Positions 3,981-26,942 of a stretch of DNA of 64,000 nucleotides are shown in pieces. The DNA is from Escherichia coli 042 (GTDB taxonomy: Bacteria > Pseudomonadota > Gammaproteobacteria > Enterobacterales > Enterobacteriaceae), in assembly GCF_000027125.1 (NCBI RefSeq), contig NC_017626.1, one strand, 5' to 3'. The notes under the pieces were generated by a model. It had not been told where the DNA came from and searched no databases. It saw only the letters and a list, made by a program, of their open reading frames with translations. The stretch's first letter is position 1; every line of letters begins with the position of its first letter. The translations under genes and the position numbers were made by a program.

Positions 3981-4630
3981 TGGATGCGAAACAACGTATT
4001 GCGCGCCGTGTGGCGCAAGAGCTTCGTGATGGTGACATCGTTAACTTAGGGATCGGTTTACCCACAATGGTCGCCAATTATTTACCGGAGGGTATTCATA
4101 TCACTCTGCAATCGGAAAACGGCTTCCTCGGTTTAGGCCCGGTCACGACAGCGCATCCAGATCTGGTGAACGCTGGCGGACAACCGTGCGGTGTTTTACC
4201 CGGTGCAGCCATGTTTGATAGCGCCATGTCATTTGCGCTAATCCGCGGCGGTCATATTGATGCCTGCGTGCTCGGCGGTTTGCAAGTAGACGAAGAAGCA
4301 AACCTCGCGAACTGGGTAGTGCCTGGGAAAATGGTGCCCGGTATGGGTGGCGCGATGGATCTGGTGACCGGGTCGCGCAAAGTGATCATCGCCATGGAAC
4401 ATTGTGCCAAAGATGGTTCAGCAAAAATTTTGCGCCGCTGCACCATGCCACTCACTGCGCAACATGCGGTGCATATGCTGGTTACTGAACTGGCTGTCTT
4501 TCGTTTTATTGACGGCAAAATGTGGCTCACCGAAATTGCCGACGGGTGTGATTTAGCCACCGTGCGTGCCAAAACCGAAGCTCGGTTTGAAGTCGCCGCC
4601 GATCTGAATACGCAACGGGGTGATTTATGA
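3980..4630 (+). CDS. atoA: Acetate/acetoacetyl-CoA transferase beta subunit
   Basis: 216-aa ORF, 1-nt overlap (TAATG) with atoD. Confidence 0.92.
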   Translation: MDAKQRIARRVAQELRDGDIVNLGIGLPTMVANYLPEGIHITLQSENGFLGLGPVTTAHPDLVNAGGQPCGVLPGAAMFDSAMSFALIRGGHIDACVLGGLQVDEEANLANWVVPGKMVPGMGGAMDLVTGSRKVIIAMEHCAKDGSAKILRRCTMPLTAQHAVHMLVTELAVFRFIDGKMWLTEIADGCDLATVRAKTEARFEVAADLNTQRGDL

Positions 4631-20220: not shown

Positions 20221-23200
20221 CTACCATTTCACCGTCATCGACAAAAACCCTGCCGTCTGGGCAAAATCATCACTCCCTTTCTGCCACGCCACGCTGCCGC
20301 GCAGCGAAACTCGCTGACTGATATTGCCCGTGACTCCCACTTTTATTTCACCCCGTTGCTTCACCGCATCGTCACTGATAGTGCTGCCATCTTCTTCAAT
20401 TTCCGTCGCATGGGGATCGTGATAATAATTCAGATCTAATGTTGGTATGACATGAACAGCGGTACGCCATTCGCTGTGTAAACCCAGCCGCGTTTGAATA
20501 TCATCACCCTGCGATTGTGACACGCGCGCATGGTTAGCGGCGGTAAAATCATCCTGCTGCACGCCCTGATAAATCACCTGCGCCTGCGGTTCAACCACCA
20601 CACCACGCCCCGGTAACCACTGATACCCCGCTTCCAGCGAGGCGATAATCCCCGACGAATGGTAATGATCTGTGCCATCGTCTTGTTCGGAAACATCATT
20701 GTTAAACCACGCGTATTGCAGCCAGCTATCCAGCCAGGCCCCCTGCTTCTGATTACCGTGCTGAAACCAGCTTGAGGTCAGACCAACGGCATAACCGTGG
20801 TTCTGGTTATCGGCGCGAGTTCCGGTCATATTCGAGCGGCTGTCGCCCTGGTTATCACTGTAGCCACCAACCGCCCCAAGCATCCACTCGCCATCCGCGC
20901 CCCAGCGCCCGCTAAACAAGTCGCCGCTAAGCTGCACCGTAGAAGTGTCTTCATGCTGAGCCAGTTGCCCCGCTGCTGTGTAATGATAATTTCCGCCGAT
21001 AACACGTAAATTCAGCGTCTGACCATCGCCACCAGCGTGATCGTGTCGCTCCATCACAAACGCCTGATTTGCCGCCCGCAGGTTATTAAAATATCCACCA
21101 ACTTTGGCATTCAACACCGGCTGGTAGGCAGGCGTAGGGTCCGGGGCCGGGTCGGGTGTTGGATCAGGATCGGGAGTCGGGTCTGGATCAGGTGGCGATG
21201 GTGGCGTTACTTCTTGCGATCGCAGATACCAGTCGTTGTTATCTTCCACCAGCGTGTAGTCATACGCTCCCATATTGACGTAGCCGCTGCCTGCCAGACT
21301 GAACTGCGCATTGTTTTGAAACTGCGTGGGATCAGCTGCGAAATCAACCACTTTAATGCCTGTCGATGTCGGCTCACCAATCCCTGTAATGGAGTTAACC
21401 ATCACAGTTGTGTTGCCAGCAGTATTACCGTTCATCACCAATTGATCGCTTACCGAGTCATCGCCGTTTAATTCGCTATCGAGCAGTAGCGTACCACCGC
21501 CGGTATAATCACCGTTTACCGTCAGCGTATCGCCAGCGACGCCATTTTGCAGGCTAACCGCACCAGACGTATTGGTCAGATTGCCATTAACCGTCACGTT
21601 GGAAAGATAAGTCAGGCTGTCAGTTTCAAGGTTGGTATTAAGCTCGCCTGTCAACGTCACGCCATCGGTGGCATTCACCAGCGTCCCATCGCCGTTAAAC
21701 AGTGAGGCATTAAGGGCGACGGAAGTATCCTGCCCGGTCAGGCGCAAAACCGTACCATCGCTGATGTCGATAGTGCCGCTGGAAGTAGCATCAATTGACT
21801 GAATATCCTGATCCGCGCCAGTCTTGAATGTTGCCCCGTCACCGACCCACAGCGACGAAGCATAAGGGAAGATATCCGCAACATCACCTTTCAGGGTGCC
21901 TTCTTCGACACGTACCGCCGACTGCGTTGTACCGCTGGCGGTCAGTTCCAGCGTACCCGCCCCCGTTTTCGTCAATGTGCTACCCTCATCCTGATGCTGC
22001 CCGCTGCTGTCAGCCATCAGTGCGCCCCACTGCGTGTCTACCCCCGCATCAACTGCCACTTCACCGTCGGCGCGCATTTCAATATCACGCCCGTGACCTG
22101 CTGCCTCTGAACGAGTATCAACGTCAGCGGTAATTTCCATCTCACTTTGTTGTTGGCTATCAGTAAAGATGAGCTGACGGTTTTCGTCGGTATTGCCAAG
22201 CTGCGAGTTGTCGCTCACCACCAGCGTACCGGAAGCGATTTGCGTGGTGCCCAGGTAACTATTATTGTTTGCCAGGCTAACCAGCCCGTCGCCCGCATCG
22301 ATCACCACGTAGACGCCATCTTTCTCGTCGCCGCCGATATGCAAATTGTCGCCACCTGCGAGATCCACCACATCCTGACTGCCGATAACCGTACCGCCGC
22401 TGCCGCTGACTGCAAGGCCATCGTTGTATGATGTGCCGCTCTGCCAGGTGGCGAAATCAGAGAGATCAAGCACGCCGCCGTTTAACACGATCGACTGCGG
22501 ATCGTCCTGGAGAGCGGCAAGATCTGCCGCGTCGCCTTCCAGCGTAAGCACCGCGCCATCATCAACGACTATATCGCCAGTTAGCGCCATCGACTGAGCC
22601 CCTGCCAGCACGTAGCTGCCGTTTTGCGCAATGGTGAGCTGACCAGCACCTTCGATGGTGCCAGCAAAACTGCCCTGATTAACAGTAACGTTGCCACCAG
22701 CATCGATATTTAAAGTGCCATTCTGAAAGCCCATCAATGCGTGCACAAAAGTTTGTTGGGTCGAGCCAACGTTTAGCTCAGCCTGATTCTGATACTGATC
22801 AATACTCCCTATCGTCAGACCGTAGCAGTCTTGCGTATCGTCCTGGCAATGCGTATCGCCGACATTCATCAGGGAGTTGCTGCGGCCCAGGGTAACTTCA
22901 CCGTTTTCAATCTGCATCTCGCCAGTAAAGTCATTGTTATCTGCATTAAGTACCAGATCGCCGGAACCTGTTTTGGTGATTAACCCGGTACCAGCAATAG
23001 AGTCAACAGCTCCGTCATTCTCTGTATTGCCGATAACCAGCGTTTTTCCGTCGGCAATATCAAAGGTAACGTCACTTAAGCCGAGATACATAAAGCCACC
23101 CGCCGCAGTGGAAGGACCATCTCCATAGCCTGCTGCGCTATTGTTCTCATCCACTAAAACACCGTTGTTCTGGCTGTAGCTGTCATCAACTGAAATATCA

Positions 23201-23961
23201 ATAAGATAGGGAGCCGTCACGCTATTGGTATAAATCGCCCCGCCATATCCCTCAGCAGAGTTATTTGTAAATGCGGTGTTATTTATTATTGTGAAACCTG
23301 ACGGATGCGTGATATCGCTATTATTATCGGTGACATCGATTGCCCCTCCATCGCCATCACTGTAACTTGTTGATGTATATGCCTGGTTATTGTCAAAAAT
23401 AACTTCATTTAAATAGACGTCATTGTTGATGGTATAAATTGCACCACCTTTGCCGTCATTAGCGATGTTATTGCGAAACACGGCGTTAGTGACACGTAAA
23501 TCGACGACACCGGTATCGTTAGTACCAGAAGAATAGATTGCGCCACCATAGCCACCTGCAACGTTACCGGAAAAAATAACATTAGTAAGATTCAGCGTTG
23601 AGTTTTCTTTAGCAAATATTGCCCCGCCGTTATTATATTCTCCTGAGACAGTATTATTGGCAAACAGAGTCATTCCAGTTTCATTTTCTGGCGATAGAGA
23701 AAACTCCGCTCCTTGTTGCAAAAATACGGCCCCACCGCTGGCGTTATTAGTCATATCCGAAAAAACCAGCCATTGCCCATCGGCGATGCTCCAGTCCTGC
23801 GTAAAGCTTGAAAGGCTTTGCCTGCTGGCGTGACAACTCGCTTTGATATCATATCCCTGGCATAAATCAATGGCCGCCGCGACACCGTTAGCAGAGAAAA
23901 GATACGCAATCATTGACGGGAGTAAAGATAAATACTCCTTGCGTAGAAAAATAATCCGCAT
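20221..23961 (-). CDS. yfaL: AIDA-I-type autotransporter adhesin YfaL
   Basis: 1246 aa; signal peptide, glycine/asparagine-rich passenger, PD/PT repeat linker, C-terminal beta-barrel ending in W. Confidence 0.9.
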   Translation of the reverse strand: MRIIFLRKEYLSLLPSMIAYLFSANGVAAAIDLCQGYDIKASCHASRQSLSSFTQDWSIADGQWLVFSDMTNNASGGAVFLQQGAEFSLSPENETGMTLFANNTVSGEYNNGGAIFAKENSTLNLTNVIFSGNVAGGYGGAIYSSGTNDTGVVDLRVTNAVFRNNIANDGKGGAIYTINNDVYLNEVIFDNNQAYTSTSYSDGDGGAIDVTDNNSDITHPSGFTIINNTAFTNNSAEGYGGAIYTNSVTAPYLIDISVDDSYSQNNGVLVDENNSAAGYGDGPSTAAGGFMYLGLSDVTFDIADGKTLVIGNTENDGAVDSIAGTGLITKTGSGDLVLNADNNDFTGEMQIENGEVTLGRSNSLMNVGDTHCQDDTQDCYGLTIGSIDQYQNQAELNVGSTQQTFVHALMGFQNGTLNIDAGGNVTVNQGSFAGTIEGAGQLTIAQNGSYVLAGAQSMALTGDIVVDDGAVLTLEGDAADLAALQDDPQSIVLNGGVLDLSDFATWQSGTSYNDGLAVSGSGGTVIGSQDVVDLAGGDNLHIGGDEKDGVYVVIDAGDGLVSLANNNSYLGTTQIASGTLVVSDNSQLGNTDENRQLIFTDSQQQSEMEITADVDTRSEAAGHGRDIEMRADGEVAVDAGVDTQWGALMADSSGQHQDEGSTLTKTGAGTLELTASGTTQSAVRVEEGTLKGDVADIFPYASSLWVGDGATFKTGADQDIQSIDATSSGTIDISDGTVLRLTGQDTSVALNASLFNGDGTLVNATDGVTLTGELNTNLETDSLTYLSNVTVNGNLTNTSGAVSLQNGVAGDTLTVNGDYTGGGTLLLDSELNGDDSVSDQLVMNGNTAGNTTVMVNSITGIGEPTSTGIKVVDFAADPTQFQNNAQFSLAGSGYVNMGAYDYTLVEDNNDWYLRSQEVTPPSPPDPDPTPDPDPTPDPAPDPTPAYQPVLNAKVGGYFNNLRAANQAFVMERHDHAGGDGQTLNLRVIGGNYHYTAAGQLAQHEDTSTVQLSGDLFSGRWGADGEWMLGAVGGYSDNQGDSRSNMTGTRADNQNHGYAVGLTSSWFQHGNQKQGAWLDSWLQYAWFNNDVSEQDDGTDHYHSSGIIASLEAGYQWLPGRGVVVEPQAQVIYQGVQQDDFTAANHARVSQSQGDDIQTRLGLHSEWRTAVHVIPTLDLNYYHDPHATEIEEDGSTISDDAVKQRGEIKVGVTGNISQRVSLRGSVAWQKGSDDFAQTAGFLSMTVKW

Positions 23962-24192
23962 ATTAATCTGACCATCATTTTCTATAAGACGGCATATTTA
24001 ATCGCATTATACGATATGGGTTATTTTTCTTTTGTAAATTGTTCAACCCCGTGCAATGGCTATTTTGTTATTATTTCATGAATAATATCAGTGCGTCATA
24101 ATTCAAGTTAATCACCTTAAGGGATATTAGTTATATTTAAACTGAATTAAAGTAATGAATAATTTTCTTATAATATAAGGTAAATTAACAAA

Positions 24193-24282
24193 ATGGCTTC
24201 GCATTTAACAATAACCGAAGAGAAAACAACCATTTCGATATCAACAATCGCTTACATTCGCTTATATATTGACCAGAACTGA
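24193..24282 (+). CDS. Candidate 29-aa small ORF in the nrdA upstream region (speculative)
   Basis: ATG with AAGG about 13 nt upstream; MASHLTITEEKTTISISTIAYIRLYIDQN; below the length cutoff of the ORF track. Confidence 0.2.
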   Translation: MASHLTITEEKTTISISTIAYIRLYIDQN

Positions 24283-24494
24283 TACATCAGATTATGCGAT
24301 GATTCGTGCTTAGATCAATTTTTGCAATCATTAGCCAAAAGATTAATAAACCATCTATATCAATTTATCTAACCTATTCTTCCGTTCAAGAAATCGCCGA
24401 ACAGTTATTTTTAACAAATTTTTCTCTTCCCATTGACTTTCCCGGACACCTTGTCTGACCTAAGGTGCGCGAAAGCCACTTTTTCCTTCCTGAG

Positions 24495-24503
24495 TTATCC
24501 ACA
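24495..24503. promoter_or_regulatory. DnaA box (TTATCCACA) in nrdAB promoter region
   Basis: Perfect 9-mer match to the DnaA box consensus. Confidence 0.6.
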
Positions 24504-24534
24504 AAGTTATGCACTTGCAAGAGGGCCATTTTCA

Positions 24535-24581
24535 CACTATCTTGCAGTGAATCCCAAACATACCCCCTATATATAGTGTTC
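24535..24581 (+). promoter_or_regulatory. Two NrdR-box-like palindromes overlapping the nrdA core promoter
   Basis: ACACTATCTTGCAGTG and CCCTATATATAGTGTT resemble the acaCwAtATaTwGtgt NrdR consensus. Confidence 0.5.
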
Positions 24582-24656
24582 TAAGCAGCTTCCCTCACTA
24601 CAGGTAGTCTGCATGAAACTATTGCGGAAAGAATTCCAAAAACAGGTACGACATAC

Positions 24657-26942
24657 ATGAATCAGAATCTGCTGGTGACAAAGCGCGACGGTAGCACAGA
24701 GCGCATCAATCTCGACAAAATCCATCGCGTTCTGGATTGGGCGGCAGAAGGACTGCATAACGTTTCGATTTCCCAGGTCGAACTGCGCTCCCACATTCAG
24801 TTTTATGACGGTATCAAGACCTCTGACATCCACGAAACCATTATTAAGGCTGCCGCAGACCTGATCTCCCGTGATGCGCCGGATTATCAGTATCTCGCCG
24901 CGCGCCTGGCGATCTTCCACCTGCGTAAAAAAGCCTACGGCCAGTTTGAGCCGCCTGCGCTGTACGACCACGTGGTGAAAATGGTCGAGATGGGCAAATA
25001 CGATAATCATCTGCTGGAAGACTACACGGAAGAAGAGTTCAAGCAGATGGACACGTTTATCGATCACGACCGTGATATGACCTTCTCTTATGCTGCCGTT
25101 AAGCAGCTGGAAGGCAAATATCTGGTACAGAACCGCGTGACCGGCGAAATCTACGAAAGCGCCCAGTTCCTTTATATTCTGGTTGCCGCGTGCCTGTTCT
25201 CGAACTACCCGCGTGAAACGCGCCTGCAATACGTGAAGCGTTTTTACGACGCGGTTTCCACATTTAAAATTTCGCTACCGACGCCAATCATGTCCGGCGT
25301 GCGTACCCCGACTCGTCAGTTCAGCTCCTGCGTACTGATCGAGTGCGGTGACAGCCTGGATTCCATTAACGCCACCTCCAGCGCGATTGTTAAATACGTT
25401 TCCCAGCGTGCCGGGATCGGCATCAATGCCGGGCGTATTCGTGCGCTGGGTAGCCCGATTCGCGGTGGCGAAGCGTTCCATACCGGTTGTATTCCGTTCT
25501 ATAAGCATTTCCAGACAGCGGTGAAATCCTGCTCTCAGGGCGGTGTGCGTGGCGGTGCGGCTACGCTGTTCTACCCGATGTGGCATCTGGAAGTTGAAAG
25601 CCTGCTGGTGTTGAAAAACAACCGTGGGGTGGAAGGCAACCGCGTGCGTCATATGGACTACGGGGTACAAATCAACAAACTGATGTATACCCGTCTGCTG
25701 AAAGGTGAAGATATCACCCTGTTCAGCCCGTCCGACGTACCGGGGCTGTACGACGCGTTCTTCGCCGATCAGGAAGAGTTTGAACGCCTGTACACCAAAT
25801 ATGAGAAAGACGACAGCATCCGCAAGCAGCGTGTGAAAGCCGTTGAGCTGTTCTCGCTGATGATGCAGGAACGTGCGTCTACCGGTCGTATCTATATTCA
25901 GAACGTTGACCACTGCAATACCCATAGCCCGTTTGATCCGGCCATCGCGCCAGTGCGCCAGTCTAACCTGTGCCTGGAAATCGCCCTGCCGACCAAACCG
26001 CTGAACGACGTCAACGACGAGAACGGTGAAATCGCGCTGTGTACGCTGTCTGCTTTCAACCTGGGCGCAATTAATAGCCTGGATGAACTGGAAGAGCTGG
26101 CAATTCTGGCAGTACGCGCACTCGACGCGCTGCTGGACTATCAGGATTACCCGATCCCGGCCGCCAAACGTGGAGCGATGGGTCGTCGTACGCTGGGTAT
26201 TGGTGTGATCAACTTCGCTTACTACCTGGCGAAGCACGGTAAACGCTACTCCGACGGCAGCGCCAACAACCTGACGCATAAAACCTTCGAAGCCATTCAG
26301 TATTACCTGCTGAAAGCCTCTAATGAGCTGGCGAAAGAGCAAGGCGCGTGCCCGTGGTTTAACGAAACCACTTACGCGAAAGGGATCCTGCCGATCGATA
26401 CCTATAAGAAAGATCTGGATGCCATCGCTAATGAGCCGCTGCATTACGACTGGGAAGCACTGCGTGAGTCAATCAAAACGCACGGCCTGCGTAACTCCAC
26501 GCTTTCTGCTCTGATGCCGTCCGAGACCTCTTCGCAGATCTCTAACGCCACTAACGGTATTGAACCGCCGCGTGGTTACGTCAGCATCAAAGCGTCGAAA
26601 GACGGTATTCTGCGCCAGGTGGTGCCGGACTACGAGCATCTGCACGACGCCTATGAGCTGCTGTGGGAAATGCCGGGTAACGATGGCTACCTGCAACTGG
26701 TGGGTATCATGCAGAAATTTATCGATCAGTCGATCTCTGCTAACACCAACTACGATCCGTCACGCTTCCCGTCAGGAAAAGTGCCGATGCAGCAGTTGCT
26801 GAAAGACCTGCTCACCGCCTACAAATTCGGGGTCAAAACGCTGTATTATCAGAACACCCGTGACGGCGCTGAAGACGCACAAGACGATCTGGTGCCGTCA
26901 ATCCAGGACGATGGCTGCGAAAGCGGCGCATGTAAGATCTGA
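24657..26942 (+). CDS. nrdA: Ribonucleoside-diphosphate reductase 1 alpha subunit
   Basis: 761 aa; N-terminal ATP-cone, C-terminal redox cysteine pair (CESGAC). Confidence 0.97.

Follow-up and report, generated by a model that had tools for sequence, protein, structure and literature searches.

The yfaL-nrdA spacer of Escherichia coli 042 is the known nrdAB control region and carries a probably accidental small reading frame

The window analyzed here is a stretch of 64,000 nucleotides from the chromosome of Escherichia coli 042. According to the list of open reading frames and the RefSeq annotation, the spacer between yfaL and nrdA occupies positions 23962-24656 of the window and is 695 bp long. 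To its left lies yfaL (ehaC), the gene of an AIDA-I-type autotransporter adhesin (20221-23961, minus strand; a 1246-amino acid ORF, RefSeq annotation of strain CFSAN018748), with its start at 23961. To its right, the nrdA ATG at 24657 opens the gene for the α subunit of class Ia ribonucleotide reductase (24657-26942, plus strand; a 761-amino acid ORF, RefSeq annotation). An earlier note on this DNA, made from the sequence, had described an AT-rich intergenic region of 695 bp that controls nrdA. Its coordinates agree with the borders at 23961 and 24657, and the composition profile gives a GC content of 20-35% across ~23950-24400. The designation as the nrdA control region also held, and both its DnaA site and its NrdR operator are genuine. 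In addition to the two flanking genes, RefSeq annotates a third one within the spacer, the 47-amino acid ypaB on the minus strand (24386-24529), which the earlier note overlooked.

The spacer is 100% identical over its 695 bp in strain CFSAN018748, and it aligns end to end and without gaps with the K-12 spacer at ~96% identity. Among 5,426 complete E. coli genomes, 5,422 cover at least 80% of the region. Most are 95-99% identical, and a class of ~1,000 genomes that includes the B2 strain APEC O1 shows ~89% identity to the spacer. Both the flanking genes, yfaL and nrdA, and the full-length alignment identify the spacer as the orthologue of the K-12 nrdAB regulatory region, which is a target of DnaA, Fis, IciA/ArgP, H-NS, NrdR and HusR. 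The double DnaA box, the -35 and -10 hexamers, NrdR boxes 0 and 1 and the HusR boxes are identical in K-12 and in the window. The two differ at three places discussed below: NrdR box 2 begins with TC in the window and with GT in K-12, the ypaB product begins with MALL in the window and with MTLL in K-12, and a small reading frame interrupted by two TAG codons in K-12 has sense codons in the window. No RNA family was matched in an Rfam scan of 23000-25500 (E <= 1) and no terminator-like sites were found in 23800-24800; for these reasons a reading of the region as a small RNA or a riboswitch was dropped. Beyond the DnaA double box, repeats in the spacer are just short AT-rich matches typical of low-complexity DNA.

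A sigma-70 core promoter for nrdAB can be read from the sequence at 24515-24543 on the plus strand, with the -35 hexamer TTGCAA at 24515-24520, a 17-bp spacer and the -10 hexamer TATCTT at 24538-24543. The hexamer geometry and the published leader length together suggest a transcription start at ~24547-24551. Transcription from TTGCAA-17-TATCTT would then begin at ~24550 and give nrdA a 5' untranslated leader of ~107 nt (24550-24656, plus strand), a length inferred from the promoter position; the published leader is ~110 nt long. This predicted leader would hold NrdR boxes 1 and 2. The leader is 13 bp shorter in B2 strains, and the gap in APEC O1 aligns at ~24626-24638. Upstream of the promoter, an AT-rich tract, GTTATTTTTAACAAATTTTTCTCTTCC (24404-24430, plus strand; ~-146 to -120 from the transcription start), does not vary between E. 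coli, E. albertii and Pseudocitrobacter and is also kept in P7-like plasmids. Between this tract and the promoter lie two boxes for HusR (YnfL), CCGGACACCTTGTCTG at 24442-24457 and CACTTTTTCCTTCCTG at 24477-24492, both on the plus strand. HusR is a LysR-type regulator for which 16-bp boxes in the ypaB/nrdA spacer were published in 2026, the first of ours being the same as the spacer box given there (PMC12844172). Both boxes are unchanged in the window relative to the published sequences. Together with the AT-rich tract they form the more distal upstream portion of the nrdAB regulatory part (~24380-24656).

A double DnaA box, TTATCCACAaagTTATGCACT (also written TTATCCACAnnnTTATNCAC), is located at 24495-24515 on the plus strand. 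It consists of TTATCCACA at 24495-24503, a 3-bp gap (aag) and TTATGCACT at 24507-24515, and it abuts and overlaps the -35 hexamer. The number of single TTATNCACA matches in the window (three, compared with 2.0 expected) is not significant. The double box TTATCCACAnnnTTATNCAC, on the other hand, is found once in the window and in none of 100 shuffles, which is significant. The preferred target of DnaA has been defined as double boxes with a 2-3-bp spacing (PMC11317965), and two direct 9-mers near TTATNCACA at such a distance are indeed what is found at 24495-24515. In the K-12 DnaA ChIP-seq data of the same study, the site gTTATCCACAaagTTATGCACTt was occupied, 14-fold over control (PMC11317965), and the double box in the window matches this site letter for letter. 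In an alignment of one promoter type (21 sequences: the window and 20 loci from about ten genera), TTATCCACA shows at least 90% conservation. With the K-12 occupancy carried over by sequence identity, we regard the DnaA site as genuine. The perfect DnaA box at 24495-24503 described in the earlier note is therefore present and belongs to a real site, but as a single box it is incomplete, being one half of a cooperative double box. [quoted passage not shown] Fis and IciA likewise act at the nrdAB promoter (PMC8203912).

Three boxes have to be considered for NrdR, all of them on the plus strand. The window was scanned with the 16-bp consensus acaCwAtATaTwGtgt, allowing at most 3 mismatches. The sole match in 64 kb is box 1, CCCCTATATATAGTGT (24564-24579), which agrees with the consensus at 14 of 16 positions. 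At least one such match also occurs in 37 of 100 shuffles, so that the count for box 1 is not decisive on its own. Box 2, TCACTACAGGTAGTCT (24595-24610), matches at 11 of 16 positions and begins 31 bp after the start of box 1. Box 0, TCACACTATCTTGCAG, extends from 24532 to ~24547-24549 and overlaps the -10 hexamer; this older upstream box starts 32 bp before box 1, is a poor palindrome and matches the consensus at ~10 of 16 positions by manual count. A near-consensus 16-bp box with a second box 31-32 bp away is thus present, and two boxes three helical turns apart, at 31-32 bp, are the typical spacing of an NrdR operator (PMC12176259). The nrdHIEF and nrdDG operators are likewise built from two 16-bp boxes three helical turns apart. 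A strict pattern finds box 1 in most of 79 Enterobacterales loci.

The boxes upstream of nrdA have recently been reassigned. Rozman Grinberg et al. (FEBS J 2025, PMC12176259) gave the classical pair the names box 0 and box 1 and reported a third box, located 15 bp downstream of the latter. In microscale thermophoresis with K-12 sequences, the Kd was > 6000 nM for boxes 0 and 1 and ~100 nM for boxes 1 and 2 (PMC12176259). The affinity for boxes 0 and 1 was 40-50 times weaker than that for other NrdR operators, while the affinity for boxes 1 and 2 was like that for the nrdHIEF and nrdDG operators (PMC12176259). In earlier gel shifts, mutation of box 0 had no effect and mutation of box 1 abolished NrdR binding (PMC12176259). 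Boxes 0 and 1 are identical between the window and K-12. The box 2 oligonucleotide that was tested is the K-12 version (GTACTAC...); box 2 of the window differs from it in its first two bases, TC for GT, and is one position nearer to the consensus. Among the sequences sampled, K-12 alone has the GTAC form; TCAC is found in the B2-type E. coli, in E. albertii and in Pseudocitrobacter.

These measurements bear on where NrdR acts. One explanation is that NrdR represses through boxes 0 and 1 (24532-24579), over the -10 hexamer, by occluding RNA polymerase. Boxes 0 and 1 are the classical bioinformatic assignment and are still used in one genome-wide box search. The segment CACTATCTTG is conserved across genera beyond what the -10 hexamer alone would need, and in the genera with the other promoter type (Citrobacter, Klebsiella, Enterobacter) there is a reasonable upstream box at the same location, matching at ~12 of 16 positions by manual count. 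However, the measured affinities favor boxes 1 and 2 and the match of box 0 to the consensus is poor, so we consider repression through boxes 0 and 1 unlikely. Because the Kd is ~100 nM for boxes 1 and 2 and > 6000 nM for boxes 0 and 1, the functional pair in our analysis appears to be box 1 (24564-24579) and box 2 (24595-24610), just downstream of the transcription start, with their 31 bp corresponding to three helical turns. Box 0 contributes little to NrdR binding. The NrdR-like palindromes placed at 24535-24581 by the earlier note accordingly contain one strong match that belongs to a genuine operator, box 1, but as a pair they reproduce the older assignment that binds poorly in K-12; the pair overlapping the core promoter that is described there gives way to one just downstream of the start. 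Such a location also distinguishes nrdAB from nrdHIEF and nrdDG, whose box pairs lie over the -10 and -35 hexamers.

The promoter was also compared with other genera and with phage-plasmids. The first 200 residues of NrdA served as the query of a scan that yielded 80 loci from Enterobacterales species. Two promoter architectures were found among them. In type A (Escherichia, Pseudocitrobacter, Yersinia, Serratia, Hafnia, Edwardsiella and others), TTATCCACA is located upstream of CTTGCA. In type B (Citrobacter, Klebsiella, Enterobacter, Kluyvera, Pantoea and others), the -35 and -10 hexamers are different and an inverted pair of DnaA boxes directly follows box 1. In the alignment of the 21 type-A sequences, conservation reaches at least 90% in the columns of the DnaA box, CTTGCA, CACTATCTTG and box 1. 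At the position of box 2, the same alignment has a CACTA(C/T) half-site with a conservation of at least 75%.

Plasmid matches at 24400-24540 were considered as a sign of a mobile element in the spacer. This was rejected, as the matches are the long-known nrdA-like promoter of the P1 family of phage-plasmids. The 'nrdA-like promoter' of these phage-plasmids (GenBank M95666; NC_005856 misc_feature) is homologous to window positions 24404-24533 in P7 and SJ46 (95%) and to 24419-24533 in P1 (83%). The homology takes in the AT-rich tract and the region of the HusR boxes, together with the -35 hexamer and the double DnaA box, which is exact. The homology ends before the -10 hexamer; the phage copies have a -10 of their own and no NrdR boxes. 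Since they have the DnaA boxes without the NrdR boxes, these copies would respond to DnaA and not to NrdR.

The left part of the spacer has a different character. Alignment with relatives begins at window position 24314 in E. albertii, 24375 in Pseudocitrobacter and 24383 in a divergent genome named E. coli. Only ~24380-24656 is conserved beyond the E. coli that carry yfaL. As homology in these three relatives starts at 24314-24383, the AT-rich left ~420 bp belongs with yfaL. This lineage-variable, yfaL-associated part (23962-24380) has a GC content of 20-35% and contains seven promoter-like matches in a consensus scan, compared with 3.2 ± 1.8 expected. The two-part ancestry of the spacer had gone unnoticed in the earlier note. 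In K-12, the promoter island 2342143_534 (yfaL/ypaB) has been listed (Panyukov and Ozoline, 2013, PMC3661553), and it maps to ~23913-24446 of the window. Promoter islands are AT-rich, H-NS-bound and horizontally acquired. The AT-rich part of the window is the same element as the K-12 island in another strain; low GC content and a surplus of promoter-like hexamer pairs are common to both and no difference was found. Genomic SELEX marked H-NS in the yfaL/nrdA spacer, and the same study lists TTGATC-16-CATAAT as a yfaL promoter (PMC3946193). Our consensus scan predicts a sigma-70 promoter for yfaL with the same hexamers at 24291-24318 on the minus strand. Transcription from this predicted promoter would start at ~24284 and give yfaL a leader of ~320 nt, antisense to the small reading frame discussed next. 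Taken together, 23962 to ~24380 is AT-rich DNA that accompanies yfaL, rich in promoter-like sequences, reported to be H-NS-associated and probably holding a silenced yfaL promoter.

Within this AT-rich part, the earlier note had pointed to a 29-codon ORF with a plausible ribosome binding site as a possible small protein. The ORF exists, at 24193-24282 on the plus strand with an ATG start, and its product would be MASHLTITEEKTTISISTIAYIRLYIDQN. Its length is within what chance predicts: 90-94% of composition-matched 695-bp shuffles contain an ATG ORF of at least 29 codons, with a mean of 2.0-2.6 per shuffle. The ribosome binding site was less convincing. Only AAGG (24177-24180) precedes the ATG, at a spacing of 12 nt where 5-9 nt is usual; this Shine-Dalgarno match is weak but compatible with translation. 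In K-12 the frame begins with ATG-GCT-TAG, and codon 10 is another TAG; the window has sense codons at both of these sites, so that the frame is open. A haplotype census with an exact 61-mer covering codons 1-13 showed how the frame is distributed over the 5,426 complete genomes. The window type (214 genomes) and an I7T type (613 genomes) are intact, whereas a type with TAG at codon 10 (1267 genomes) and the K-12 type with TAG at codons 3 and 10 (1796 genomes) are interrupted. Other 61-mer haplotypes account for ~450 genomes. A further ~1,090 genomes have no match to the 61-mer. In the three B2-type strains that were sampled, TTG takes the place of the ATG and codon 3 is TAG. The frame is thus open in at least 827 genomes (at least 15%) and closed in at least 3,063 (at least 56%), and it is probably closed in ~75%. 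Interruptions were seen in K-12, O111-type and B2 strains. The 20 single-base variants among eight haplotypes comprise two nonsense, 14 non-synonymous and four synonymous changes, a distribution that gives no sign of purifying selection, and one of the eight haplotypes has a frameshifting indel. An exact look-up among 15 billion proteins found neither of the open-frame products, and the 29-amino acid product matched no Pfam or NCBIfam family. A literature search for a small protein or another feature in the yfaL-nrdA spacer returned just unrelated CRISPR-screen and typing papers. The pattern is that of non-coding DNA, and ORF 24193-24282 is best regarded as a chance reading frame in AT-rich DNA that is polymorphic for stop codons.

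The second small frame, ypaB, is located on the other side of the boundary, on the minus strand. It covers regulatory DNA upstream of nrdA, namely the AT-rich tract, both HusR boxes, the double DnaA box and the -35 hexamer. The exact YpaB sequence is a member of a 156-member cluster named 'protein YpaB', and the gene is annotated in CFSAN018748. A CAT-to-CAG change removes the start codon in three sampled strains of B2 type, in which RefSeq annotates no ypaB. The E. albertii copy has a stop at codon 18. A CRISPRi screen ascribed the apparent essentiality or fitness effect of ypaB to the nrdA promoter inside it (bioRxiv 10.1101/308916). Some minus-strand transcription across this stretch may exist because a HusR-dependent ypaB mRNA has been reported, by RT-qPCR (PMC12844172).

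Each of the two frames could in principle be a gene, and the evidence was weighed for both. For ypaB, the alternative is a real 47-amino acid protein gene, divergent from nrdA and co-regulated through HusR, with its DNA conserved partly for coding. Its annotation in K-12 (b4605), propagated across E. coli, the HusR-dependent mRNA and the homologous ORFs in P1 and P7 (upfO and relatives) are consistent with such a gene. However, the start codon is absent from all three B2-type strains sampled, and a stop interrupts the E. albertii copy. The P1 and P7 copies have diverged freely over the C-terminal half, while their DNA is exact at the DnaA boxes and the -35 hexamer; YpaB belongs to no Pfam, NCBIfam or PHROG family, and its fitness effect is explained by the nrdA promoter that it contains. 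A protein-coding ypaB is therefore quite improbable in our judgment. Most probably ypaB is an accidental ORF, preserved through the conserved operator DNA that it overlies. The case for a protein is weaker still for the 29-codon frame. Here the alternative is a genuine lineage-restricted small protein, a young proto-gene whose two stop codons became sense codons (TAG to TCG and TAG to GAG) in a minority of E. coli, and which is translated from a transcript starting in the promoter island. The frame is intact in this strain, as it is in CFSAN018748 and 118UI, and, in two haplotypes, in the 827 or more genomes mentioned above; promoter-like sites on the plus strand lie upstream at 24136-24163, and the AAGG motif precedes the ATG. 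Against these stand the stop codons or missing ATG in most E. coli, the mostly non-synonymous variants, a length that chance predicts and the long distance between AAGG and ATG. The region is also reported to be H-NS-associated, the product is absent from the 15 billion proteins and belongs to no Pfam or NCBIfam family, and no homologous stretch is found outside the E. coli that carry yfaL. We consider this small protein very improbable, and the suggestion of the earlier note is not upheld. The more specific proposal that the ~15% of E. coli with sense codons at both TAG sites translate a very young, lineage-restricted micro-protein, born in the promoter island of yfaL and running antisense to its putative leader, is highly speculative and very improbable. 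If true, a de novo gene would be naturally present in some E. coli and absent from others, a modest case of proto-gene polymorphism within a species.

We hold with high confidence to the following explanation of the whole spacer: an nrdAB regulatory part is joined to a yfaL-linked AT-rich part, the small ORF arose by chance and ypaB is most probably accidental. The identity with the K-12 sites, the conservation across genera and the ORF statistics come from this analysis, and the binding data and the direction of regulation come from the literature. Binding of DnaA and NrdR in strain 042 is presumed from the K-12 data. The spacer is the known nrdAB control region of E. coli and nothing here extends published biology: the sites for DnaA and NrdR, although real, had been published before, and a small protein is not supported.

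The nrdAB genes make dNTPs for replication, and their promoter couples the dNTP supply to initiation, through DnaA, and to the dNTP pool, through NrdR. Work on this important regulation goes back to the 1980s, with refinements in 2024-2026. For this locus, our analysis identifies the small ORF as an accidental frame, and the annotated ypaB is probably another. For NrdR, the assignment is corrected one box downstream, to box 1 and box 2. The analysis also shows that box 2 of K-12 is further from the consensus than box 2 of the other strains and close relatives that were sampled.

A copy of the region upstream of nrdA is present in P1-family phage-plasmids, where it comprises the AT-rich tract, the HusR-box region, the exact double DnaA box and the -35 element. 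The counterpart of window positions 24404-24533 (24419-24533 for P1) lies at 1501-1615 in our phage P1 locus (L011) and at 4004-4132 in that of the P7-like plasmid pPBS4-p1 (L002). The identity of the copy to the nrdA upstream region is 95% in P7/SJ46-type elements and 83% in P1, and the homology ends before the -10 element and the NrdR boxes. Of the plasmids in PLSDB, 318 carry the copy, as do 15 phage records. It is already known: the records M95666 and NC_005856 label it 'nrdA-like promoter' and 'dnaA box', but no annotation of a function for it was found in them.

Approximately 270 nt downstream of the nrdA-like promoter in P1 lies an unannotated ORF with a hydrophobic predicted product of 45 residues, MTAFFQFLSAFLDAPVISQILAIILIIVLILLLRSVKNGIMHWLT (L011 1885-2022, plus strand in the orientation of the locus; L002 4403-4540). 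The ORF is on the same strand as the nrdA-like promoter, opposite to the annotated upfO, upfN and upfM, and is provided with an AAGGAAC ribosome-binding motif. Two residues differ between P1 and the P7-like plasmid. The predicted product has no PHROG match, and its Pfam matches are all sub-threshold (E 0.3-0.4). A GC hairpin, GGGTCTGnATTACAGACCC, is located between the promoter and the ORF.

The layout of the nrdA promoter in E. coli is common to Yersinia, Serratia and Edwardsiella, and differs from that in Citrobacter, Klebsiella, Enterobacter, Kluyvera, Pantoea and their relatives (L015-L047 and other loci). In the latter genera, the stretch ~60-110 bp ahead of nrdA (about 2400-2440 in the loci) has its two DnaA boxes arranged as an inverted pair, TTATCCACAG...CTGTGGATAA. 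The inverted pair is directly downstream of NrdR box 1, at the position occupied by NrdR box 2 in E. coli.

In a divergent genome labelled 'E. coli', SCPM-O-B-8794 (L013, NZ_JAATUR010000019.1), a different AT-rich sequence (1-2220) is found upstream of the equivalent of window position 24383. No long ORF lies wholly inside these 2.2 kb, suggesting that this genome lacks yfaL or has a replacement or a degraded copy in its place.

Thirteen base pairs of the nrdA 5' leader (about CGGAAAGAATTCC; window 24626-24638, roughly 20-30 nt upstream of the nrdA ATG) are missing in the B2-type E. coli strains APEC O1, uk_P46212 and MS 57-2. NrdR box 2 starts with GT in K-12 (window 24595-24596), whereas the start is TC in the window strain, the sampled B2-type strains, E. 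albertii and Pseudocitrobacter. Therefore, the published affinity for boxes 1 and 2 of K-12 may slightly underestimate binding in strains with the TC form.
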